From: Escherichia coli
GTDB taxonomy: Bacteria; Pseudomonadota; Gammaproteobacteria; Enterobacterales; Enterobacteriaceae
Direction: 5' to 3' (one strand)
Assembly (NCBI RefSeq): GCF_003991155.1
Contig: NZ_CP031293.1
DNA length: 64,000 nt
This document shows, in pieces, positions 1 through 22,665 of the stretch. Below the pieces are notes generated by a model. The model was not told the DNA's origin. It was given only the letters and a program-made list of their open reading frames with translations, and made no database searches. Each line of letters opens with the position of its first letter. The first letter of the stretch is position 1. A program made the position numbers and the translations under genes.

Positions 1-976
1 CCATCGCCTGGAAGTCCAGCATCCCCTGAACATGTGCGACGCAGCTCTGTGCCGCTTCTTTTTGCAATCTGGCGTGTTGCTGTGGATCCTGCTGTGCAGC
101 GCGCCATTGTTCTACGCTCCAGCCCATCGGTAGGTAGCCATAAACCAGATCGTGAGCGGAAGTCTGGTCGGTCACCAGATCCGGCTTGATCGCCCCCTGA
201 CGTGCACGTTTCACCAGTTCAGGAACAATTTCCGCCGCATTGCCCAACAGCGCGATTGAAACAGCGTCTTTGCGCTCAGTATGGTATTTAATCAGCGCCA
301 GTGCATCATCGAGATCTTTCGCTTGTTTATCGACATAACGGGTACGCAGACGGAAGTCGATGCTACTTTGCTGGCACTCGATATTTAATGAACACGCCCC
401 CGCCAGAGTCGCCGCCAGCGGTTGTGCACCGCCCATACCACCTAGCCCTGCGGTCAGGATCCATTTTCCACTCAGCGAATTGTTGTAGTGCTGACGACCC
501 GCTTCAACAAAGGTTTCGAACGTTCCCTGCACAATGCCCTGACTACCGATGTAGATCCACGAGCCAGCGGTCATCTGGCCGTACATGAACAGACCTTTAC
601 GATCCAGTTCATTGAAATGATCCCAGTTGGCCCATTGCGGTACCAGGTTAGAGTTGGCAATCAATACGCGCGGCGCATCGGTATGCGTTTTAAACACGCC
701 TACGGGTTTACCGGACTGAACCAGCAGTGACTCATCAGCTTCCAGATTTTTCAGTGATTCAAGGATTTTGTCAAAACACTCCCAGTTACGTGCCGCACGA
801 CCAATACCACCATACACCACCAGATGCTGTGGATTTTCGGCAACGTCGGGATCAAGGTTGTTCTGCAACATCCGATAGGCAGCTTCGATCTGCCAGTTTT
901 TGCAGTGCAGCTGCGTACCGTGTGGCGCATGGATTACACGGCTGGTATCAATACGCGGGTCTGAAGGCTTACTCAT
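1..976 (-). CDS. hutU: Urocanate hydratase, N-terminal ~325 codons; 3' end lies beyond the window edge
   Basis: Minus-strand frame open to position 1; ATG at 974-976 preceded by GGAG; my translation [23 protein letters not shown]...[15 protein letters not shown]...[15 protein letters not shown]...[13 protein letters not shown] matches the urocanase family. Confidence 0.85.
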
Positions 977-1041
977 GAATCTTCTCCTGTTACTTGATAA
1001 AATTAAACGCTGTAATCGGTCAGAAAAAACGAACGAATGAA

Positions 1042-1060
1042 TATAGAAACGGTTTCTATA
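1042..1060. promoter_or_regulatory. Perfect 9-1-9 palindrome TATAGAAAC-G-GTTTCTATA about 70 bp upstream of the hutU start; candidate operator
   Basis: Palindrome read directly from the sequence; no match to a named operator consensus asserted. Confidence 0.3.
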
Positions 1061-1733
1061 ATTCCCGTTTATCATTTTGTATTATTAATTCATTTAGTGA
1101 ATATTGTTTGTCGTGGTATATTCACTATGAATATAAATTCAAAACCACCAACGCGTTGTATGCGAATTCAATATGCTTAATTTAACTTGTCGAAAAAGTG
1201 ATATTGTTGGCAAAATATTTTCTAATTTGAACATATGAATATGATGAGATTGCAAGATGTCAGTAATTTAATTATATGAGAAATGCGTTAATAACGACCA
1301 GATATTAGCGTAACAACAGGTGTTCCGACACCACACAGTGCGCATAACACAATGATATTTAAAATAAGATCTTCATTATTCGTCATAAAGACATGTTTTA
1401 TTATCATTAATAATCCATTTGTTTTCATCCCACTTTTGATAATTAAAAAACGGCAACAATGGATAGTTACCCGACGTAAAAACAGGCGTAAAAATAAATC
1501 TTAAAATATATCCACTGGAAATTATCATTTTTCATATTTTACAATCTGGCGTCGATAACTGACCCCTTTTATAACACCCCCGTTTGTTAATAGTCTTTTT
1601 TATCTTGTATTGATCGTCATTGCTGCATACACTACGCGCGTTTTCTTTCCCTTTTGCTGGCTGCTGACCGGAAAGACAAAATTACCCTCGCAATAAAGGG
1701 GGTTGTTTAACGTCTATATTTCAGGACAGCGTT

Positions 1734-3131
1734 ATGCATCATCTTTCAAGGCTTGATAAAGCCTTTCTGCGCAAAGGGATCCAACTTTCCCGCGCCAACA
1801 ATATTGTTTCATTATGTCGTCCATCAGGAGCCAGTGCCCACGTACTGCTGCCGGACGAACTGCCGCTGGAAGAAAAAGCAGTGACACAACTGCTTGATTT
1901 TGCAGAAGTGAAGATACCAGACCATCCAGGTTACGTACGCCAGACCTGTGCGACGCCAGATTTTCATCCCGGCAATGGCGTCCCCGTTGGCGCGGTAGTC
2001 GCCTCTACGCCGGATTTAGTCATTCCTGCGGCCATCGGCACCGATATTTCTTGTGGCATGCGGCTGCTGACGACCGGATTAACACTTGAGCAAGCCGAAG
2101 CGAATAAAGAAATAATCACTCAGCGGTTAACACAAGTGTTACTGCAAAATGAGCGCGATGTTCCGTTATCCGCACGAGCGTTCACCGCGCTTTTTGATGG
2201 CGGACCGGCAGATTGCATGTCGGCCTTGCCATCAGCAGGTCTCTGGACACGTACAAATATCCCCCGAATGACGCAAGAGATTGACCGCTGCATTGGGCTT
2301 AACGAGCATAACAGTCATTCGCGTTATGCCCCACCCGCCCTACTGGTAACGGACCGCCCATTACTCCGCGATCCTTGTCTTGGTACGCCGGGTTCAGGTA
2401 ATCATTTTATTGAACTTCAGGTGGTTGATAGCGTGGTTGATCGCCATGTTGCCTGGCAACAAGGGCTGAAAACGGGCGATATTGTGGTGATGATCCACAG
2501 TGGATCGCGAGATGTTGGCTTTTACGTCGGAAGACGCTGGATGGATCGCGCCCGTGCTGAATGGCCCACCGGACATAAACATCCACAAAGCGGGTTATAT
2601 GGCCTGGCAGGCGGACTGGCGGAGGAATATCTACAAGCGATGGGAATGGCGGCGCGTTACGCGTGGTTAAATCGCGTCACAATTGCCGAAATGGTGCGCG
2701 TATGTCTTGCCAATCTCTTTCATCAGGACAATTCGCATCTGGTGGTGGATGTGCCGCATAACATCATCCTTCGCGAGCATGAAATGAATATTCATCGCAA
2801 AGGTGCAACACCGGCACGCGCGGGCAATCTGGCGTTAATCCCCGGTTCAATGGGCGATTATTCGTGGCTTGCAGTCGGTTGCGGCAACCCGGAGTGGCTG
2901 TGGTCTTGCAGTCACGGAGCAGGACGCAGCCAGCGTCGGCAGGCCATGCACTCACGCGCGACTGAAGAGTCAACGTTGCCGTGGCAATGCGTCACATTGC
3001 GCGAAGAACGGCGTATTGAAGAAGCGCCAGCTGCTTATAAAGATATTGGTCCGGTTATCGAAGCCCAACAAGAGGCCGGATTAATTCATCCAGCGGTTAG
3101 ATTCCGACCGTGGTTAACGTTTAAGGCATAA
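1734..3131 (+). CDS. RtcB-family RNA ligase paralogue (465 aa)
   Basis: ORF translation carries RtcB-type motifs: VIPAAIGTDISCGMRL, GSGNHFIELQ, IHSGSRDVG, IPGSMGDYS, CSHGAGR, AYKDIGPV; start codon uncertain (weak RBS). Confidence 0.85.
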   Translation: MHHLSRLDKAFLRKGIQLSRANNIVSLCRPSGASAHVLLPDELPLEEKAVTQLLDFAEVKIPDHPGYVRQTCATPDFHPGNGVPVGAVVASTPDLVIPAAIGTDISCGMRLLTTGLTLEQAEANKEIITQRLTQVLLQNERDVPLSARAFTALFDGGPADCMSALPSAGLWTRTNIPRMTQEIDRCIGLNEHNSHSRYAPPALLVTDRPLLRDPCLGTPGSGNHFIELQVVDSVVDRHVAWQQGLKTGDIVVMIHSGSRDVGFYVGRRWMDRARAEWPTGHKHPQSGLYGLAGGLAEEYLQAMGMAARYAWLNRVTIAEMVRVCLANLFHQDNSHLVVDVPHNIILREHEMNIHRKGATPARAGNLALIPGSMGDYSWLAVGCGNPEWLWSCSHGAGRSQRRQAMHSRATEESTLPWQCVTLREERRIEEAPAAYKDIGPVIEAQQEAGLIHPAVRFRPWLTFKA

Positions 3132-3154
3132 AAAAAGGCCATCATATGATGGCC
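3130..3154 (-). terminator. Intrinsic terminator of the sdh-suc operon, shared by convergent genes (palindrome GGCCATCAT/ATGATGGCC plus U-run on minus strand)
   Basis: 18-bp perfect palindrome 3137-3154 flanked by a 7-A run 3130-3136, which is a U-run for the minus-strand transcript. Confidence 0.65.
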
Positions 3155-3229
3155 AACCATGTCGAAACCGACAGCCCTTCGCCATTCCTGTAGAGGGAAG
3201 CGGCGAGGGCTATTTCTTATTACAGATAT
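3130..3229 (-). ncRNA. sdhX: sucD 3'UTR-derived sRNA candidate (SdhX/RybD-like)
   Basis: About 100 nt between the sucD stop and the terminator; position corresponds to the known SdhX locus in E. coli; sequence identity not verified. Confidence 0.45.
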
Positions 3230-4099
3230 TTATTTCAGAACAGTTTTCAGTGCTTCACCGATATCCGCCAGGCTGCGAACGGTTTTCACGCCTGCGGCTT
3301 CCAGAGCAGCGAATTTCTCATCCGCAGTCCCTTTCCCACCGGCAATGATCGCACCTGCGTGACCCATACGTTTGCCTTTCGGCGCAGTCACACCAGCGAT
3401 GTAACCTACAACTGGCTTGGTAACGTGCTCTTTGATGTATGCAGCCGCTTCTTCTTCAGCGCTACCACCGATCTCACCGATCATCACGATCGCTTCGGTC
3501 TGCGGATCTTTTTCGAACATTTCGAGGATGTCGATAAAGTTAGAGCCAGGGATCGGGTCGCCGCCGATACCAACACAGGTCGACTGACCGAAACCGTAAT
3601 CCGTGGTCTGTTTAACCGCTTCATAGGTCAGTGTACCGGAACGGGAAACGATACCCACTTTACCCGGTTTGTGAATGTGACCAGGCTGGATACCGATTTT
3701 GCATTCACCCGGAGTGATAACGCCCGGGCAGTTCGGGCCGATCATGCGAACGCCCGCTTCATCCAGTTTCACCTTCACGGTCAGCATATCCAGCGTCGGG
3801 ATGCCTTCAGTGATGGTGATAATCAGTTTGATGCCTGCATCAATAGCTTCCAGAATGGAGTCTTTGCAGAACGGTGCTGGTACGTAGATAACAGAAGCGG
3901 TAGCGCCAGTAGCAGCAACAGCTTCACGCACGGTGTTGAACACCGGCAGGCCGAGGTGGGTGGTGCCGCCTTTACCTGGGGTTACGCCGCCAACCATTTT
4001 AGTGCCGTATGCAATAGCCTGTTCTGAGTGGAAAGTCCCCTGGCTACCGGTAAAGCCCTGGCAGATAACCTTGGTGTTTTTATCAATTAAAATGGACAT
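3230..4099 (-). CDS. sucD: Succinyl-CoA synthetase alpha subunit
   Basis: 289-aa ORF; translation [33 protein letters not shown]... Confidence 0.97.
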
Positions 4100-9392: not shown

Positions 9393-9592
9393 CGTGATCC
9401 CTTAAGCATCTTTTTTATGCTTACTTCGCCGTGGATACTACCACGCACAGTGATGTGCGTGCCGGGGTTCACTTGCGAGCTCTTGTCTACGTAGTGGCTC
9501 GCGAAGGAACCTTTAAAAACTGTCTTAGTGTCAGGGGCAGTTTTTAAAGATTTCCTGAATAGCCGGGGGATTTCCCCGGCATCAACATTTAA

Positions 9593-14859: not shown

Positions 14860-16170
14860 CTACACCAACAGCAAAGATATTGCCGGGATATAGGTAATAA
14901 CCAACAGCAGTAAAATAAGACTAACCAGTAGTGGCACCGCTTCTCGCATAAATTGCCCGACAGAAACCTGCACGGTATTACATACCAGCAGCATCACCGT
15001 TCCGACAGGCGGTGATAACGTTCCTAACGATAAGTTGAGGATCATGATGATGCCAAAATGCACCGGATCAATGCCAAAATGAGCCACCACAGGTTTAAGT
15101 AATGGAACTAATATCAGCAGGATGGCACTACCTTCAAGAAACATGCCAAGCACCAGCAGCAATAGATTGATAATCAATAAAAAGACGTATTTATTATCAG
15201 TCAGAGATGTCACAAACTCCGCAACCGTGATACCTGCCCGCTCAAGGGAAAATATCCAGCCCAGCGCGGCACTCGCCATAATGATTAACATGACCGATGC
15301 CGTCGAACGCGCCGTCTCTGAGAGTGCTGTAAATACATGGCTGATTTTCAGTTCGCGATAAATTACAAAACCAATAAACATCACCAATAATACTGCTACG
15401 GCTCCAGCTTCCGTTGGCGTAAAGATATTTGCCCGAATACCACCGATAACCGCAACAATTAAGAACAGTGCTGGCCAGGCCTGCACCAGCGCCACTGACA
15501 CTTCTTTCGGTTTTGGCCAGTGTTCGCTGGAAGGTTTTAAACCGCGCCGAATAGCTACCAGCCATACAGTGACAATCAACATGGCGGAACACAGCAGACC
15601 GGGCAGGATCCCGGCCATAAACATGGAGCCGATGGAGACATCCGCCACCAGTCCGTAAAGGATCAGTGCAATACCCGGTGGAATAATTGGTGTAATCAGC
15701 GAACCACTTGCCGTTATCGCCGCCGCAAAGCCACGGGAATAACCTTTCTGTTCCATTTCCGGCACCATCATGCGCGATAACATCGCAGCATCCGCCAGGT
15801 TTGAGGCGCTAACGCCGCCCATCATGGTACTGACCAGAATATTAGCCCCACCCAGACCACCGCGCATTCTGCCAATCAACACGTTGGCAATTTGCAAAAT
15901 ACGCGCGGCAATACCGGTATAGCTCATTAACGTGCCTAATAAGATAAAAAATGGAATAGCTAACAGCGAAGGGGTTTGCGTCGTGGCAATCAAACGCTGA
16001 ATTGCTACCATTAACGGCACATTTGAATAGCAAAGGAAGTAGGTCAGAATGCCGCAAAACATCGCCAGCCATACCGGCATATTGATAAATAAACAGATGA
16101 ACATAAGCGGAATGATCATTAGCCAGTTATCCAGCCAGCTTCCCGCCAGTAATTCACTCAATGCTGTCAT
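14860..16170 (-). CDS. TRAP transporter large permease (DctM family)
   Basis: 436-aa polytopic membrane ORF; start overlaps the dctQ stop by 1 nt. Confidence 0.85.
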   Translation of the reverse strand: MTALSELLAGSWLDNWLMIIPLMFICLFINMPVWLAMFCGILTYFLCYSNVPLMVAIQRLIATTQTPSLLAIPFFILLGTLMSYTGIAARILQIANVLIGRMRGGLGGANILVSTMMGGVSASNLADAAMLSRMMVPEMEQKGYSRGFAAAITASGSLITPIIPPGIALILYGLVADVSIGSMFMAGILPGLLCSAMLIVTVWLVAIRRGLKPSSEHWPKPKEVSVALVQAWPALFLIVAVIGGIRANIFTPTEAGAVAVLLVMFIGFVIYRELKISHVFTALSETARSTASVMLIIMASAALGWIFSLERAGITVAEFVTSLTDNKYVFLLIINLLLLVLGMFLEGSAILLILVPLLKPVVAHFGIDPVHFGIIMILNLSLGTLSPPVGTVMLLVCNTVQVSVGQFMREAVPLLVSLILLLLVITYIPAISLLLV

Positions 16171-16631
16171 TATTCACCTTCCTTGCGTGGCGTTTTCTTG
16201 ATCAGGTGTAAGGCAGTAAAACAGGCGATACCGATTGCACCAACCGTGACCGCAATATCGATCCAAAACCAGGATATTTTTAATATTTGCGTGGTTTTAA
16301 ATGCTGTTCCGGCAGCTAATTTCCATGCTGACCAAGCCATCACACTCAGTAAAACAATAGATATCAGAGAGACAAATAACGTTAAAACACGTTGCACGCG
16401 TGGTGTCAGTGCATCAGCTAAAAATGGAATCGACAAATGGGTATTATCCCGCTCGGCAACGACCGCACCAAACATGACTACCCAAATCATTAATAAACCG
16501 GAAACCTCTTCTGTCCACTGTAATGGCATATGAAAACAGTAACGCATTATTACCGCAGCAATGGTCATGATTACCAATATAAAGAGCGTTAATACCGCAG
16601 CAACTTCAATCATTTTCCCTAAAAGACGCAT
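16170..16631 (-). CDS. TRAP transporter small permease (DctQ family)
   Basis: About 153 aa with 4 predicted TM segments; start chosen at the ATG (MRLLGKMIEV...) with AGAGG RBS rather than the upstream GTG. Confidence 0.8.
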   Translation of the reverse strand: MRLLGKMIEVAAVLTLFILVIMTIAAVIMRYCFHMPLQWTEEVSGLLMIWVVMFGAVVAERDNTHLSIPFLADALTPRVQRVLTLFVSLISIVLLSVMAWSAWKLAAGTAFKTTQILKISWFWIDIAVTVGAIGIACFTALHLIKKTPRKEGE

Positions 16632-16650
16632 AAACACCTCTGCTCTTAAC

Positions 16651-16672
16651 GGTCGGTGCCGAAACACCGACC
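16651..16672 (-). other. Intercistronic hairpin between the TRAP binding-protein and permease genes (GGTCGGTG..CACCGACC)
   Basis: 8-bp perfect inverted repeat with 6-nt loop, read from the sequence. Confidence 0.4.
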
Positions 16673-16690
16673 AGTCCTTATGCCATGAAG

Positions 16691-17659
16691 TTATTTCAGC
16701 TGTTGCTGAATAGTGTCATACAAACCAGGGGTCCATTCCGGGAATTGTTGATAGACTTTTAAGGCTTTTTCTTTGAAAGGGGCGACGTCAGGATAGATAA
16801 TTTCCACGCCCTGCTCCTGCATGGTTTTCAACATTGTCGCATCCTGCTCAGTGGTAATTTTCTGGCTATATAAACCAGCTTCATACGCTGTCTGGTGAAT
16901 AATATCTAACTGCGCAGGTGTCAGGGTACTGAAAAACGCTTCACCACCCAACCATAATGATGTATTGGTCAGATAGTTCACCATTGACAGATATTTCGCC
17001 TGCTCATGCAGTTTTTGCCCATACAGAACAGAAACCGGGTTTTCCACACCATCGATCATCCCCTGCGTCAGCGCCGGATAAACGTCTCCCAGCGGCATTG
17101 GCGTTGGGGTTGCGCCCATTGCTTCAATGGCTTTAATCTGCATAACGTTATTCGGCACGCGGATCTTCATCCCTTTCAGGTCTTCAGGTGTACGAATCGG
17201 TTTTTTAGCAATGATCTGCCTGGTACCGTACAGATAGTTGCTCATGACAATATGCACACCTTTTTCCCGTAGTTTCTGTTCTTTTTGTTTAAACCAGTCA
17301 CTGGCATAAATCGCAAACAGTTTCTGCGGATCTTCGGTTAAATAAGGCCCAAACAATATTCCCAGGTCTGCATCGTAGTCAGTTAAAAATCCCACATCAC
17401 TGATGGTGATAATATTCATCCCCATCAACGCTTGTTCAGTAATATCTTGTTTAGAACCTAACTGTGAACTTGGGTAAAGTTCGAAAACAATATCTCCATT
17501 GCTTTTTTTCTTCACAAGTTCTGCCCAGTGCTTCACTACTGTATCCGCTGGCTCGCCGGGGTTACTTTCATAGGCGATTTTGATAGTTACCGGTGCGGCA
17601 TTCAGCATCGGACTAAATAAAGCGAAAAGAAATAAAAGTGGTGTCAGTAATTTTTTCAT
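16691..17659 (-). CDS. TRAP transporter periplasmic solute-binding protein (DctP family)
   Basis: 322 aa; signal peptide MKKLLTPLLFLFALFSPMLNA; conserved KIRVP region typical of carboxylate-binding DctP proteins. Confidence 0.85.
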   Translation of the reverse strand: MKKLLTPLLFLFALFSPMLNAAPVTIKIAYESNPGEPADTVVKHWAELVKKKSNGDIVFELYPSSQLGSKQDITEQALMGMNIITISDVGFLTDYDADLGILFGPYLTEDPQKLFAIYASDWFKQKEQKLREKGVHIVMSNYLYGTRQIIAKKPIRTPEDLKGMKIRVPNNVMQIKAIEAMGATPTPMPLGDVYPALTQGMIDGVENPVSVLYGQKLHEQAKYLSMVNYLTNTSLWLGGEAFFSTLTPAQLDIIHQTAYEAGLYSQKITTEQDATMLKTMQEQGVEIIYPDVAPFKEKALKVYQQFPEWTPGLYDTIQQQLK

Positions 17660-17686
17660 TATTATTACCTGTAAGAGCTTTATCGA

Positions 17687-18883
17687 TTAACGGGGATCTG
17701 CCCGACAGACTGCACTTTTGCTGTAATCAAATGCTTTATACGTTAAAACAAACTCCTGATGTTCCAGTCGTTCTGCGGCACAATATTGACCGTTGGCGAC
17801 ATGTTCAATCACCTGCATAATATCGTCTGCAATATCGTCGAGCGTTGCGCCTTCGCTAATTACACGACCGGCATTAACGTCCATATCGTCAGATAAATGC
17901 TCCCACGTCTGCGGGTTATTACACACTTTAATAATAGGAGCGATCACTGAACCAATAACTGAACCGCGACCTGTGGTAAATAACACCATATGACAGCCAG
18001 AGGCGATAAGTTCCAGTGCTTCTGAGGAATCGTTAATATTCGGATACCCAAAACGAGGTTCACCATCAGGCACCACGTCCATCAACCAAAGCCCAGGAAA
18101 GGGCGTTTGTTGCGTCGGCAAAATAACGCCAGCAATCAGCGCATCGCCCGACTTGGTATAAGCCCCAAGGGATTTTTCTTCCTGAGTGGTTAAGCCGCCT
18201 TCAGCATTACCATTAGAAAAACTCCCCAGCCCCATCAAACTGTAATAACGTTCGGCTTTTGCCATTGCCACTTCGATGGCATCACGTGCCTGCGAACTAG
18301 CCGCGCGCGACATCATATGCTGCTCACAACCAAGCAACTCACCGCTTTCTTCAAAAATACAGGTAGCCCCTTTCTCCAGCAGTTGGTCAAAGGCACGTCC
18401 TACTGCCGGGTTACCCGTGATACCACTGGTGCCATCGGAGCCACCGCAGATAGTACCAACCACCAGGTCGCTCCAGTTCAGGATACAACGCGGTGTATCC
18501 GCAAGCTGTTCCAGCATTTCAGCGACCAACTGCTTACCCAGAGTAATGGTGTTGGTCGTGCCTTTATTTTCCTGAATGACCAGCGTATGGCACGGTCGCC
18601 CACTTTCTCGTACTTCTTGCTCCAGCCGACGGCGATCAAAATTCTCGCACCCCAGCGAAATAATCAGTACACCACCTACGTTGCTATGAATCGCCAGATT
18701 TTTTACCAGACGATAGCCATAATCGCTGGGATAACAACCTGAAAAACCAAAATACTGCACGTCGTGACAAGGAAATCCTTCGGCAATCTTTTTAGCGACA
18801 TGGCTGGCACACTCCACCATAAAGATTACCTGCACAGTATTACGAATACCCGGTCGACCATTTTGCCGTACATAACCTTCCAT
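17687..18883 (-). CDS. UxaA-family (altronate/galactarate dehydratase-like) large subunit
   Basis: 398-aa ORF MEGYVRQNGRPGIRNTVQVIFMVECASHV... resembling the C-terminal catalytic part of UxaA/GarD; start overlaps the small-subunit stop (TAATG). Confidence 0.8.
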   Translation of the reverse strand: MEGYVRQNGRPGIRNTVQVIFMVECASHVAKKIAEGFPCHDVQYFGFSGCYPSDYGYRLVKNLAIHSNVGGVLIISLGCENFDRRRLEQEVRESGRPCHTLVIQENKGTTNTITLGKQLVAEMLEQLADTPRCILNWSDLVVGTICGGSDGTSGITGNPAVGRAFDQLLEKGATCIFEESGELLGCEQHMMSRAASSQARDAIEVAMAKAERYYSLMGLGSFSNGNAEGGLTTQEEKSLGAYTKSGDALIAGVILPTQQTPFPGLWLMDVVPDGEPRFGYPNINDSSEALELIASGCHMVLFTTGRGSVIGSVIAPIIKVCNNPQTWEHLSDDMDVNAGRVISEGATLDDIADDIMQVIEHVANGQYCAAERLEHQEFVLTYKAFDYSKSAVCRADPR

Positions 18884-19194
18884 TATGCTTTTTCCTCTGG
18901 CTGATAGCCGGCATCATCATGATGAAAAATGGCGATGGCATTGCTGGCAAGATTATGGGAATGCACATGTTCACCCATGGCAATATCGCGAGTGGCGTGT
19001 CCGATAATGGCGCCGTATTTCAGAATCGAATCACCATTGTTCAGCGCTTCGCAGGCCAGTTTGTGACCCAGGGTAACGGAACTACAGGCCACCATTTCCC
19101 CCTCATCCCACCAGACAATATCGCCACTGGCGATGTCATTCAGCGCGACTACACAGTTATCTTTGGCATGTAGCTTTAACGCACGTTTGCGCAT
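18883..19194 (-). CDS. SAF-domain small subunit of the split UxaA-type dehydratase
   Basis: About 103 aa from MRKRALKLHAKDNCVVALNDIASGDIV... with GGAGG RBS; corresponds to the N-terminal domain of single-chain UxaA. Confidence 0.7.
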   Translation of the reverse strand: MRKRALKLHAKDNCVVALNDIASGDIVWWDEGEMVACSSVTLGHKLACEALNNGDSILKYGAIIGHATRDIAMGEHVHSHNLASNAIAIFHHDDAGYQPEEKA

Positions 19195-19208
19195 AATTCC
19201 TCCGTACA

Positions 19209-19964
19209 TCAGAAGCCGATCAATGCGCCGCCATCCACCACCAGCACCTGACCACTGACAAATGCCGCTGCGTCTGAAGCCAGATAAACCGCAGCCCAAC
19301 CGATATCTTCCGGCTTGCCGAATTTTTTCATCGGTGTCCGCCCCAGGATTTTGTTACGGCGTTCGTCATCACCTTCAATGGCCTTACGCAACATTGGTGT
19401 ATCGATCCAGCCTGGCGCAATACCGTTGACGCGAATCCCATGAACGGCAAGCTCCGTGGTCATACCGCGAATCATGCCGAGATAGGCTGACTTCGCTGCG
19501 CTGTAGCCAGTAACCAGAGGCTGCCCAAGAAATGAGGTCATCGATGCAGTAAAAAGCACACAGCCTTGACCGCGTTGTTTCATATGCGGCACCAGCGCTT
19601 TGGTTAACGCAAATGCGCCGACTACGTGAACGTCGAGTACTGACTCAAAATCACTGACGCTCATCTCTTCAATCGGTTTTTTGCAGTGATTGCCTGCGTT
19701 ATTGACCAGGATATCGATAGCCCCGTGTTCGCTAATAAGCGCATCAACTTTTTCCTGCGCGGCTGCGGTATCCCCGACATCCATTTGTATCCAACTGGCC
19801 TGCGACCCCAATGTTCCGGCGGTCGCTTGCGCCAGCTCGCCGTTCAGGTCAGCAATAATGACCTTCGCCCCGCTGACTATCATGCATTTCGCCATTGCCA
19901 GCCCCAGCCCACTGGCTGCACCGGTGATCAACGCGGTTTTGTTATGTAAAGAAAAAGCATTCAT
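19209..19964 (-). CDS. Short-chain dehydrogenase/reductase (KduD/IdnO-like)
   Basis: 251 aa; TGAASGLG nucleotide-binding motif, IDILVNNAG, YSAAK catalytic motif; AAGGAG RBS. Confidence 0.85.
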   Translation of the reverse strand: MNAFSLHNKTALITGAASGLGLAMAKCMIVSGAKVIIADLNGELAQATAGTLGSQASWIQMDVGDTAAAQEKVDALISEHGAIDILVNNAGNHCKKPIEEMSVSDFESVLDVHVVGAFALTKALVPHMKQRGQGCVLFTASMTSFLGQPLVTGYSAAKSAYLGMIRGMTTELAVHGIRVNGIAPGWIDTPMLRKAIEGDDERRNKILGRTPMKKFGKPEDIGWAAVYLASDAAAFVSGQVLVVDGGALIGF

Positions 19965-19975
19965 GGTGTCGCTCC

Positions 19976-20989
19976 TTAAAGGTCAATGAGGATTTTGGTA
20001 TACGCGCCGGGATCACTTGCCCAGTCGCTAAAAGCATGATCAGCCTGTTCCAGCGGGTAGTGAGCACTCACCAGATTGCTGACCGGATAACGCCCGGACT
20101 CCATCAATGCCAGCACGGCACGAAAATCCGCCACGGTGGCATTGCGCGAACCACGGATATCCAGTTCTTTCATCAGGAACTGCGCACTCTGATAACTCAC
20201 TGGCTGTTTGGCGTAACCGACATAAACCACACGACCGCTAAACGCCACCAACCCTGTAGCCTGTTCAATGGTTTGTTGATTACCCACCGCTTCAATCACC
20301 ACTTCCGGGCCGCGACCGTCATTTAACAGCACCAGTTCTGCCGCCACGTCACATTGCTGCGAATTAAGAAAACGTTGCGCACCGCATTCCAGGGCAATGT
20401 TCTGCTTGCGATCATCAATATCGATAGCAATTACGCGCGCCCCCATGGCGGATGCCGCGGCGATAGCGCCAAGGCCAATTACCCCACAACCGATAACTGC
20501 GACCCATTCACCCACATTAATTTGCGCACGTCTGGCCGCATGTAGTCCCACGGCCAGCGGTTCTACCAGCGCTAACTCATCAACACTTAAGGCATTACAG
20601 ACAATGACTTTATGTGCAGGCATCGTCAGTTGTTGCGCCATCCCCCCCTGACGTTGCACACCAAGAGTTTGGTTGTTTTTACAGGCGTTAGGACGACCGC
20701 TCAGACAGGAGCTGCACACGCCACACTCAGTGCAAGGCAGAACGACCACCCGGTCACCTGGCTTGATCGCCCCTGCCATATCGCCAGTTGCCAGCACCGT
20801 GCCGCCAATTTCATGCCCCGGAATACAGGGATAATTAACCAGCGGATTCAGTCCCCGCCATGTATTGAGGTCAGAACCACACAGTCCGACACGCTCAACA
20901 TTGATTAGCACTTCTCCTTTACCGCAGACAGGTTCGGGGATATCAACAAATCGCGCCTGACTTCCCTGCTCAATGGTTAATGCCTTCAT
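19976..20989 (-). CDS. Zinc-dependent medium-chain dehydrogenase (IdnD / sorbitol dehydrogenase-like)
   Basis: 337 aa; GLCGSDL, GHEIGG, structural-zinc Cys cluster CTECGVCSSC, GCGVIGLG NAD fold; AAGGAGA RBS. Confidence 0.85.
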   Translation of the reverse strand: MKALTIEQGSQARFVDIPEPVCGKGEVLINVERVGLCGSDLNTWRGLNPLVNYPCIPGHEIGGTVLATGDMAGAIKPGDRVVVLPCTECGVCSSCLSGRPNACKNNQTLGVQRQGGMAQQLTMPAHKVIVCNALSVDELALVEPLAVGLHAARRAQINVGEWVAVIGCGVIGLGAIAAASAMGARVIAIDIDDRKQNIALECGAQRFLNSQQCDVAAELVLLNDGRGPEVVIEAVGNQQTIEQATGLVAFSGRVVYVGYAKQPVSYQSAQFLMKELDIRGSRNATVADFRAVLALMESGRYPVSNLVSAHYPLEQADHAFSDWASDPGAYTKILIDL

Positions 20990-21001
20990 TCATTGCTCTC
21001 C

Positions 21002-21688
21002 TTACATTACGCCGAAGGTTTCAAAGGCCTGTACCGTGCTCATGCCATCACTGATGGCTTTGCGCACTTCACTTTCAGTTGCCACTTTTTCCAGGGCCTG
21101 GGTAATAACTTCTTTCTCAACAACCTGGGGAATAATCAGTAATCCATCACGATCACCAAACACGATATCGCCCGGATTCACCCGCACGCCGTGAAATTCA
21201 ATAGGTACGCCGAAGTCGATGACCTTGCCGCGCGGACCTTGATCTTGTGCGTAAGTGCCATGACAAAAGGTGGGAAATTTCAATTCAAGAATTTCAGCAG
21301 AGTCACGGGCGTAACCATCGAGTACCGCACCTGCTGCTTTCAGATGCATGGCACGGGTAGACATCAACCCGCCCCACAAGGCATAGCGCAGAGAGCTGCC
21401 CGTAGTGATGTAAACATCGTTCTCTTTGAGGGCATCCAGCGCTTCAAACATGATGCCAAACGGTTTTTCGCCAATCGCCGTCTTACCCGACGTCGATTTG
21501 GTTTCGTAAACGTCCGACTCCAGCACCGGCATTGCCCGGCCTGCCACCACCGTATTCACATCCAGCGGCTTGATTGCCGGAGAAACAAACTGGTGCATAT
21601 AGCCCAGCGTGTCGAGAATATCGCCAACCACGGCGGTAAATAGCCGGGTTTTCATCAAAGCAAAAAGTTCGTTATCACTCTTCCACAT
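21002..21688 (-). CDS. RraA-like protein, putative class II 4-hydroxy-2-oxoacid aldolase
   Basis: About 228 aa from MWKSDNELFALMKTRLFTAVVGDILD... (RraA/MenG-like fold family); first gene of the operon. Confidence 0.75.
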   Translation of the reverse strand: MWKSDNELFALMKTRLFTAVVGDILDTLGYMHQFVSPAIKPLDVNTVVAGRAMPVLESDVYETKSTSGKTAIGEKPFGIMFEALDALKENDVYITTGSSLRYALWGGLMSTRAMHLKAAGAVLDGYARDSAEILELKFPTFCHGTYAQDQGPRGKVIDFGVPIEFHGVRVNPGDIVFGDRDGLLIIPQVVEKEVITQALEKVATESEVRKAISDGMSTVQAFETFGVM

Positions 21689-21694
21689 TATTTT

Positions 21695-21728
21695 CACCCT
21701 GTAAGCCTGTTTAACAGGTTTACAGGGT
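21695..21728. promoter_or_regulatory. Nested perfect palindrome (ACCCTGTAA-G-CCTGTT-T-AACAGG-T-TTACAGGGT) at the 5' end of the operon; candidate operator or RBS-occluding RNA hairpin
   Basis: Read from the sequence; lies 7 nt upstream of the RraA-like start codon and overlaps its Shine-Dalgarno region. Confidence 0.35.
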
Positions 21729-21951
21729 AAGGAGAAAAAGCGCACAATACTGCGAAGGGCGTCACGAAAAAGTTGTGTATTTACTATTTCTTCGCCACTC
21801 TTTCACACAATATGTCTTTGATTCGCACTGCATGGCGGGCGCACAGGCGCAGTAGTCTATTGATAATCAAGGGTTCTGGAGGAAAATATGAAGGATACAG
21901 TCCCGGTATTCTGGATTTTACCGACCAGGAAAAAGTACAACAGGAGTAAAA

Positions 21952-22665
21952 ATGAGTGAGAGTGCGTTATTGACCAGCGTAACGTTATCGTCACAGGTCA
22001 AAAATCATATTCTTAATCTGATCGCCGAACAAAAATTGACACCGGGGATGCCAGTTCCCAGTGAAATTCAGTTGATTCAGAAATTGGGCGTCAGTCGGGG
22101 TATTGTGCGTGAGGCCTATCGTTCACTTGCCGCCCTGGGGATTCTGGAAACGCACAGCGGTAAAGTGCCACGGATCAAAAAATTTGATGATGAAGTGCTG
22201 CGCGTGGTGTTTGGATTTGCCCTGGCGACCGAACAAGTAACAACAGAGCAAATTCTTCAAGTACGTCGCTGGCTAGAGTTGGGCGTTGTGGAAGCTGCTG
22301 CCCGTAATGGCGGAGAAGAAGATTTTGCTAACCTACGGGCTGAAATGGCAAAAATCCGCGAACAGTTCGATGATGTCGAAAGCTTTATCACCCATGACAT
22401 CCGCTTCCATCAGTTACTCGCCGTTGCCTCAAAAAATCCGCTTTTTATGATGTTATTGCAGGCATTACATCAGCAATTGCGGCAATCCATCCAGGAGGGA
22501 TTAAACGCCCAAAGCGATCAGAAAGAGTATGGCAATCACATCATCACACTACACCAGAAAATCTGCGACGCTGTGTGTGCCAGAGATGTCGAAACGGCGA
22601 CTCAAGCCATGAAATCACACTTCGACAGCCCGGTCAGTGCACTGATCAATAATTCCTCGCCATAA
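21952..22665 (+). CDS. GntR-family transcriptional regulator (FadR-type C-terminal domain)
   Basis: 237 aa; N-terminal winged HTH (EIQLIQKLGVSRGIVREAYRSL) followed by an all-helical domain; divergent from the catabolic operon. Confidence 0.85.
   Translation: MSESALLTSVTLSSQVKNHILNLIAEQKLTPGMPVPSEIQLIQKLGVSRGIVREAYRSLAALGILETHSGKVPRIKKFDDEVLRVVFGFALATEQVTTEQILQVRRWLELGVVEAAARNGGEEDFANLRAEMAKIREQFDDVESFITHDIRFHQLLAVASKNPLFMMLLQALHQQLRQSIQEGLNAQSDQKEYGNHIITLHQKICDAVCARDVETATQAMKSHFDSPVSALINNSSP

Follow-up and report, generated by a model that had tools for sequence, protein, structure and literature searches.

Swoo_3913 of Shewanella woodyi is a periplasmic enzyme that cleaves histidine betaine to urocanate and trimethylamine, and a lysine has been found essential to ergothionase activity (10.1101/2025.08.13.670108). 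Two further periplasmic trimethylammonia-lyases are SO_3057, an ergothionase, and SO_3299, which cleaves N-pi-methyl histidine betaine (10.64898/2026.04.22.720169). Among the genes of histidine utilisation (hut), HutTu is the urocanate-specific transporter of Pseudomonas clusters (PMC12977541), and hut together with the methylaspartate pathway is a recognised oxidative histidine route of gut anaerobes (10.64898/2026.06.22.733842). In Escherichia coli a cluster encoding FumD, glutamate mutase as well as methylaspartate ammonia-lyase was characterised in O157:H7 and is carried by 26.5% of E. coli (Kronen and Berg 2015, PMC4682846). An ergothionase activity reported from E. coli in 1962 has been doubted in a 2026 paper which states that E. 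coli has no homolog (PMC13405746). Here we analyse a stretch of 64,000 nucleotides of E. coli (contig NZ_CP031293.1, assembly GCF_003991155.1; hereafter the window) which opens inside a hutU gene lying next to sucD. We regard it as fairly probable that the interval between sucD and cydA is an old modular accessory segment of Escherichia into which mngRAB came later, and that its hut-like cluster serves for the use of urocanate and histidine betaine. The evolution of the segment is largely shown, while its function is what we infer. Neither this cluster in E. coli nor the lineage of the strain was found described in the literature searched.

All genome counts refer to a comparison set of 5426 complete E. 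coli genomes. Individual loci were read in E. coli 2016C-3878 (L001), WCHEC4533 (L003), O157:H7 (L005) and a full-array E. coli genome (L007), as well as in an enteric-like contig (L090), an E. marmotae-type contig (L099) and an E. albertii-labelled genome (L100). The window matches E. coli 2016C-3878 (NZ_CP029747.1) at 100% identity. Its positions 1-976, on the minus strand, hold the 5' part of hutU (codons 1-325 of 565, from translation, TIGR01228 and the annotation of NZ_CP029747.1), with the start codon at 974-976 and GGAGAA a few bases upstream. In NZ_CP029747.1 the gene is annotated hutU, has a full length of 565 amino acids and extends 722 bases past the window start. A preliminary description had placed the opening of the window in a urocanate hydratase gene, and this is borne out by the 325-codon open frame and by 934 bits against the NCBIfam model TIGR01228 (cut-off 375). 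The product stays below the cut-offs of the sister families of thiourocanate hydratase (670 vs 930 bits) and S-methyl-thiourocanate hydratase (672 vs 880), and the gene encodes a canonical urocanase. A further point of that description, a check for more hut genes upstream of the window, proved rewarding, as an NCS1 permease, hutD, hutI, hutG and a lyase of the histidine ammonia-lyase (HAL) family are all present there.

The six genes hutU, NCS1 permease, hutD, hutI, hutG and lyase are followed by a LysR gene (L001 12059-20976, annotation), and all six are intact in the window strain with no pseudogene flags. The order in 2016C-3878 is sucD, rtcB paralog, the six-gene hut-like cluster, LysR, a module running from cobO to glmS, IS1, two hypothetical genes and cydA; the cobO...glmS module comprises cobO, class I fumarase, a DAACS symporter, DUF4387, AtuA, methylaspartate ammonia-lyase, glmE, glmL and glmS. 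The IS1A copy (L001 642-1339) lies outside the window between glmS and the two hypothetical genes, shortens one of these and is found in the window strain only. HutI reached 451 bits against TIGR01224 (cut-off 298) and HutG 293 bits against TIGR01227 (cut-off 229), which places both in their families. A search for HutC, which covered the interval between sucD and cydA, found no GntR-family gene, the sole regulator there being of LysR type. A Rahnella hutH query found no canonical enteric-type hutH in the window strain. The same query found hutH in only 11 of the 5426 E. coli genomes, in all cases plasmid-borne and 79% identical (for example NZ_CP026404.1 43736-45286). The hut operons of Salmonella and Klebsiella adjoin bio, and the gal-mod-ybhA-pgl stretch of the window strain contains no hut genes. 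The cluster is thus not a classical histidine-utilisation operon, and "histidine utilisation" is probably the wrong label for it, because it contains neither a canonical HutH nor a HutC.

Among the best 80 matches compared in a contig scan, the HutU proteins of Betaproteobacteria share 84-86% identity with that of the cluster, those of Erwinia, Rahnella and Pantoea only 76-77%. Other Escherichia do not appear among these 80, which does not count as evidence, since look-ups of single loci showed the cluster in them. HutI, HutG, HutD and the permease likewise have their best matches, among those listed, in Comamonadaceae and related families, with betaproteobacterial identities of up to 68% for HutI, up to 66% for HutG and 68-72% for the permease. 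In three betaproteobacterial loci the homologous permease adjoins hutU, and the permease homologs carry generic names throughout. As these proteins are closer to those of Betaproteobacteria than to those of enterics, a horizontal origin of the module at some earlier time is suggested. The G+C content of the hut genes (0.49-0.57) is core-like. The ratio of non-synonymous to synonymous substitution rates (dN/dS) amounts to 0.010 for hutU when it is compared with the E. albertii-labelled ortholog; the permease has a value of 0.028 and the lyase one of 0.034, and purifying selection on these genes is strong.

The lyase (WP_001361287.1) carries the central argument about function. It matches PF00221 (HAL fold), but it scores 281 bits against the hutH model TIGR01225, whose cut-off is 539, and with the HutH proteins encoded in more than 70 related hut loci it shares about 30% identity. 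Its best match among solved structures is the ergothionase of Treponema denticola (6s7j, E 5.5e-85, 38% identity), histidine ammonia-lyase following at E 6.7e-50. At the site of the 4-methylideneimidazole-5-one (MIO) cofactor Rahnella HutH reads GSVGASGD, whereas the lyase reads GSIGAADI (aligned as GSIGAA-D), that is Ala-Ala and a one-residue gap. Since the Ala-Ser-Gly triad is absent, the MIO cofactor needed by ammonia-lyases cannot form; none of the 120 closest lyase homologs has the triad either. Proteins annotated "HAL/PAL/TAL ammonia-lyase" or "histidine ammonia-lyase" at this position are therefore, to judge by their residues, very probably not ammonia-lyases. The N-terminus (MKGLIRRVTVTVVLWSVCSIAMA followed by K) is a typical Sec signal peptide, with a good Shine-Dalgarno sequence upstream, and is kept in an 85% identical homolog; the protein is thus predicted to be periplasmic, its mature form beginning at Lys24. 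The lyase retains Tyr77, His117, Gln308, Arg314, Asn339 and Glu466, as in Swoo_3913, and it unites the features of the MIO-less trimethylammonia-lyases: HAL fold, no Ala-Ser-Gly, and the catalytic, imidazole-binding and carboxylate-binding residues. Lys384 of the T. denticola ergothionase aligns to Ile438 (FGSLHIPF in the lyase, TIQKTF in the ergothionase), so the lysine of ergothionases is missing. Among the 120 closest homologs this pair of positions is Gln-Lys in 98 and His-Ile or His-Val in 17, and those Lys-bearing relatives that were checked adjoin flavocytochrome c genes.

Relatives of the lyase were also considered in their gene context. Contig L090 (1419-5377, 49% G+C) carries, one after the other, the weak remnant of a hutU gene, a permease of the NCS1 family and a lyase, permease and lyase each being 85% identical to those of E. 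coli; between the hutU remnant, the permease and the lyase there is no hutD, hutI or hutG. The neighbourhood of a 68% identical homolog (P0008) is Pseudomonas-like with hydroxyproline-type genes and was uninformative. Within E. coli the lyase gene (L001 13235-14905) has a synonymous divergence (dS) of 0.24 to L007, as against 0.01-0.07 for lysR, hutG and hutU, which suggests an old or imported allele of this hyper-divergent gene.

From these features the following pathway can be proposed. The Sec-exported MIO-less lyase would cleave histidine betaine (hercynine) to urocanate and trimethylamine in the periplasm, with no histidine deamination. The NCS1 permease would import urocanate, from which HutU, HutI and HutG, the last being a formimidoylglutamase, would form glutamate and formamide. 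Glutamate could in turn be carried on to mesaconate and citramalate by the methylaspartate cluster next to these genes. The same route would be expected for free urocanate. The histidine-betaine model has indirect support from the neutral residue at the lysine site, from the signal peptide and from the genes to which the lyase is linked, a permease and a canonical urocanase; the strong purifying selection and the recurrence of the permease-lyase pair on L090 also speak for it. HutTu belongs to the NCS1 family, and the comparison of the permease is based on this. It is possible, if rather less than probable, that about 2.6% of complete E. coli genomes (including those of sequence type (ST) 648) and other Escherichia carry a working, undescribed pathway of lyase (for hercynine, possibly ergothioneine), urocanate import and Hut enzymes beside the methylaspartate module.

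The layout of the sucD–cydA interval differs widely among strains. It holds mngRAB only in K-12 and W; as had been supposed at the outset, K-12 lacks hut and has mngR-mngAB-cydAB after sucD (MG1655 reads sucD-mngR-mngA-mngB-cydA). O157:H7 has LysR and the mutase cluster only, WCHEC4533 has mngRAB, rtcB, LysR and mutase without hut, ST648 and the window strain have rtcB, hut, LysR and mutase without mngRAB, and 2022H048 and 2015C-4136CT1 have the complete array sucD-mngRAB-rtcB-hut-LysR-mutase-cydA. The complete hut-like cluster occurs in 143 of the 5426 genomes and is contiguous with sucD in 135, and the mutase cluster is found in 1117. In the seven E. coli loci read, the annotation shows neither an integrase nor a tRNA within the sucD–cydA interval, and the IS1 of the window strain is its sole mobile element. 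The junctions show no target duplication and no flanking repeat, so the segment does not qualify as an integrative genomic island.

Compared with the full array, the window misses only L007 26167-31775, which is mngB-mngA-mngR (5.6 kb). The breakpoint falls in the last rtcB codons, where the window reads TTTAAGG followed by CATAAAAAAAGGCC (Lys-Ala-stop) and the full array TTTAAGGGGTAA (Lys-Gly-stop); in full-array genomes mngB-mngA-mngR is inserted exactly at the rtcB/sucD-terminator junction. This junction lies at 3120-3154 of the window, as defined by the terminator-like site, the junction sequences and the breakpoints. The last rtcB codons, AAG GCA TAA, abut here the hairpin GGCCATCATATGATGGCC, after which a T-run follows on the minus strand. 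The hairpin, a terminator-like site at 3154-3137 of the minus strand, is read as the putative terminator of sucD (3230-4099, minus strand, annotation), the last gene of the sdh-suc cluster. The latter gene belongs to the core genome (5425 of the 5426 genomes) and is separated from rtcB by 98 bp.

The junction TTTAAGGCATAAAAAAGGCC, in which the rtcB end is fused to the sucD terminator, also occurs in the E. marmotae-type contig, and a 181-bp junction probe was covered to at least 80% in 838 of the 5426 genomes, including O157:H7 and O145 strains. In O157:H7 the gap between LysR and sucD (L005 19475-20141, 667 bp) consists of four collinear relics of 86-95% identity: the LysR-lyase intergenic region together with the terminal 138 bp of the lyase gene (86%), two inner pieces, of which one comes from the lyase gene (62 bp, 87%) and one from rtcB (57 bp, 91%), and the 3' end of rtcB carrying a junction like that of the window (95%). 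As these relics end in the window-type junction, O157:H7 descends from the window layout, and the odd non-coding DNA beside its sucD is accounted for. Proteins with the same or almost the same sequence as the lyase bear the source names E. marmotae, E. albertii and Escherichia sp. In L099 sucD is followed by an rtcB 3' relic with the same junction, 299 bp of the hutU–rtcB spacer, a fusion that joins the initial 610 bp of hutU with a 490-amino-acid lyase remnant, LysR and the mutase genes. In L100 it is followed by an unrelated 258-amino-acid open reading frame (ORF), hutU, permease, (hutD), hutI, hutG, lyase, LysR and fumD. DNA identity between species is 80-92% for the island genes and 93-96% for the suc genes; the island genes are at least as divergent as the suc genes and were therefore not recently transferred between species.

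Because junction relics occur in 838 genomes and in the E. marmotae-type locus, and the E. albertii-labelled locus has the genes at the same place, rtcB abutting the sucD terminator is most likely the older state, mngRAB was inserted later in E. coli, and the K-12 layout is derived. Most lineages would have lost parts by deletion after the mngRAB insertion, K-12 being left with mngRAB only, O157:H7 with the mutase part and relics, and ST405-like strains without hut; the window strain and ST648 may never have acquired mngRAB or may have lost it. The preliminary description had seen the block as a lineage-specific insertion or replacement at the 3' end of suc. It is strain-variable (143 of 5426), as that view supposed, but the polarity is most likely the reverse of the one proposed, given the junction relics. 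Nor does the suggestion of an unexpected insertion beside sucD agree with the 135 E. coli genomes having hut genes at the same position. The synteny is thus an ordinary one, sucD–cydA being a modular variable region of which K-12 shows a reduced form.

Several observations weigh against this interpretation of the segment and its function. The lyase is only 39% identical to Swoo_3913, compared with 56% to Lys-bearing, ergothionase-like Shewanella homologs, and its Lys-less Enterococcus relatives adjoin genes for a coenzyme A transferase, an MFS transporter and a flavin mononucleotide enzyme and not hut genes. SO_3299 likewise lacks the lysine, having Gln at the site, and is inactive on histidine betaine (10.64898/2026.04.22.720169). 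In the E. coli lyase His437 might replace the lysine in sulfur binding. That the permease carries urocanate is suggested by its neighbourhood and by the membership of PA5099 in the NCS1 family. With regard to the history of the segment, the hut-less allele in which LysR faces rtcB has 463 unrelated bp (L003 11538-12000) and no hut relic, so at that boundary insertion is indistinguishable from deletion; this filler of WCHEC4533 presumably holds an enterobacterial repetitive intergenic consensus (ERIC)-like repeat. Moreover, dS between species is 0.55-1.0 for the island genes and 0.17-0.25 for sucCD, an excess that codon bias could explain but that would also allow old allele exchange. Decay is seen in several carriers as well: a hutU frameshift in ST648, a hutD stop in L007, disrupted genes in L100 and the hutU-lyase deletion fusion of E. 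marmotae.

The inactivity of SO_3299 on histidine betaine means that loss of the lysine is not sufficient in itself, and the pair His-Ile in the E. coli lyase is not the Gln-Asn of Swoo_3913. The substrate of the lyase might then be a different imidazole betaine without sulfur, such as an N-methylated histidine betaine as for SO_3299, the hut enzymes taking a urocanate analogue or free urocanate. However, His117 and Glu466, which bind the imidazole, are kept, and the urocanase, under strong purifying selection, is within the best 80 matches 84-86% identical to those of ordinary hut operons, so that we consider another substrate of this kind unlikely.

Ergothioneine has also to be considered as the substrate. 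The cluster would in that case be an ergothioneine catabolic one, its lyase an ergothionase that forms thiourocanate and trimethylamine, and it could be the source of the activity reported in 1962, which is otherwise unexplained given that E. coli is said to lack an ergothionase homolog (PMC13405746). The best solved structure is indeed that of the T. denticola ergothionase, the nearest relatives (53-62% identity) bear the Gln-Lys motif of ergothionases, and His437 could bind sulfur in place of the lysine. Yet the essential lysine is Ile438, the canonical urocanase falls short of the cut-offs of both thiourocanate-hydratase models, and the cluster contains no desulfhydrase or hydantoin-propionate genes; E. 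coli W, moreover, lacks the locus. That strain was examined as the possible enzyme source of 1962 and rejected, having the K-12 layout and no lyase. We thus judge this explanation rather unlikely. The sucD–cydA lyase is, from its alignment, an ergothionase homolog in E. coli, although the lack of the lysine speaks against such an activity.

It is improbable that a classical hut operon entered the 3' end of suc in one lineage or took the place of mngRAB there, and as to polarity this reading is largely refuted. It would agree with the canonical hutU, hutI and hutG, with the absence of these genes from K-12 and most E. coli, with the AT-rich spacer and with the betaproteobacterial affinity of the closest non-Escherichia HutU, HutI, HutG and permease among the matches listed. 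The same junction or position in E. marmotae-type and E. albertii-labelled genomes and the relics in 838 E. coli speak against it, as do the core-like G+C content, the lack of integrase, tRNA and flanking repeat, and a MIO-less lyase with a signal peptide in a cluster without HutC and a strain without canonical hutH. A decaying relic with no present function in E. coli is very improbable, for despite the loss from 97% of genomes, the lesions listed above and the O157 relics, the window strain has all six genes undamaged and all catalytic residues kept, dN/dS is 0.01-0.03 for hutU, permease and lyase, and the presumed control region is almost invariant.

The hutU–rtcB spacer (977-1733) is divergent and AT-rich, with 757 bp and 32.5% G+C, as described by composition, cross-species blastn and alignment. 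Its hutU-proximal part of about 300 bp is kept across Escherichia species, its middle is variable (blastn, alignment), and its rtcB-proximal 108 bp (1626-1733) occur also in strains with rtcB but without hut, as seen in the comparison with WCHEC4533. A conserved non-coding block of 108 nt (1168-1275) is nearly invariant, with 101 of 108 alignment columns unchanged, among the loci of E. coli, of E. marmotae type and of the E. albertii-labelled genome, where hutU is only about 90% identical; the block is more strongly conserved than the flanking coding sequence and presumably constitutes the control region of hutU. A 21-codon ORF within it was rejected, as the few differences between species are non-synonymous. 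A repeat search found an inverted repeat whose perfect 10-nt arms, TAGTGAATAT / ATATTCACTA, are separated by 13 nt (1095-1127), at 119-150 bp upstream of the hutU start; its arms are partly kept in other species and it is a possible operator. The LysR protein, the block and the inverted repeat are named as candidates for regulation of the cluster. An Rfam search of window positions 1-3400 gave no match at E <= 1. A consensus promoter scan of the spacer gave 5 sites where 4.3 are expected by chance, and the conserved block had no consensus promoter; with counts so near chance the scan is uninformative.

Between the spacer and sucD lies a gene for an RtcB-family RNA ligase paralog of 465 amino acids (1734-3131, plus strand). 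It matches PF01139 over residues 63-464, at full length, with E 8.6e-95, which assigns it to the RtcB family, and its top solved-structure matches are RtcB ligases. The translation shows the motifs GTDISCGMR, GSGNHF, HSGSR, HN and SHGAGR, which we take to be catalytic. It scores under the NCBIfam equivalog cut-offs (205.6 vs 407 and 169 vs 271.8 bits), and it is neither of the rtcBA-operon type nor PrfH-associated, its neighbours being hutU and sucD, or LysR and mngB. The paralog occurs in 289 of the 5426 genomes, and as roughly half of these 289 lack hut, it is a module separate from hut. In hut-less strains it is divergent from the LysR gene, and a divergent gene pair is the classic arrangement of a LysR regulator and its target. 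The segment is built of the rtcB paralog, the genes from hutU through NCS1 permease, hutD, hutI and hutG to the lyase, LysR, the cobO...glmS genes (methylaspartate pathway with FumD) and the two hypothetical genes.

Two further differences were noted elsewhere in the window. The sdhB-sucA intergenic region (9393-9592; L007 38212-38601) contains tandem units of about 95 bp in full-array strains and in K-12, and none in the window strain. Between gltA and abrB (about 14860-22665) the window carries genes for a TRAP transporter, UxaA-family hydrolases, a short-chain dehydrogenase/reductase, an alcohol dehydrogenase, an RraA-family gene and a GntR regulator. This gene set is present also in ST648 as far as the locus was read; K-12 and O157:H7 have there the ybgDQPO fimbrial operon, and W at least ybgD-ybgQ. 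Here a second variable region of the replacement type lies within the window.

If the proposed pathway is true, carrier strains would be producers of trimethylamine from dietary histidine betaines, a further source of this compound in Enterobacteriaceae, and the missing gene for the "E. coli ergothionase" activity of 1962 might be supplied. The lyase is annotated as an ammonia-lyase in hundreds of Escherichia genomes, and it probably belongs to the trimethylamine-releasing betaine lyases, a group recognised only lately.

With respect to known systems, the Pseudomonas and Burkholderiales hut clusters are similar in that hutU adjoins an NCS1 permease and in the order hutD-hutI-hutG, which is that of Hydrogenophaga and Rhodoferax. 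The E. coli cluster differs from them in having no HutH, HutC or histidine transporter, in carrying a predicted periplasmic betaine lyase instead of HutH, and in its E. coli-like G+C content. With hutUH-hutIGC of Salmonella and Klebsiella it shares the one-step formimidoylglutamase route from urocanate to glutamate; however, the enteric HutU is about 76% identical (best 80 matches) and HutH and HutC are again lacking in E. coli. The methylaspartate cluster of O157:H7 is the same module as that found here directly adjacent in the sucD–cydA segment, and it consumes glutamate, the hut end product, so the two modules may be functionally coupled in E. coli; the hut genes, the lyase genes and the O157:H7 relics are not mentioned in the report on that cluster (PMC4682846). 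The ergothionases (6s7j, SO_3057) provide the best structure match and the closest sequence relatives, and release trimethylamine without MIO. They differ by the thiolate-binding Lys384, which is Ile438 here; the E. coli urocanase, moreover, is no thiourocanate hydratase, and the relatives that were checked adjoin flavocytochrome c genes. Swoo_3913 has in common with the E. coli lyase the HAL fold without Ala-Ser-Gly, the Sec signal peptide, Tyr77, His117, Glu, Gln308, Arg314 and Asn339, and a neutral residue in place of the lysine, and its product urocanate is the substrate of the E. coli neighbour genes. The identity is 39%, with Gln-Asn there and His-Ile in the E. coli lyase, whose activity is predicted. 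Furthermore, the Shewanella partner is a respiratory urocanate reductase, whereas the partners in E. coli are the permease, HutU, HutI and HutG, which would assimilate urocanate to glutamate. The Escherichia locus would thus represent, as far as can be deduced from its genes, a new combination in which a trimethylammonia-lyase is coupled to an assimilatory urocanate pathway.

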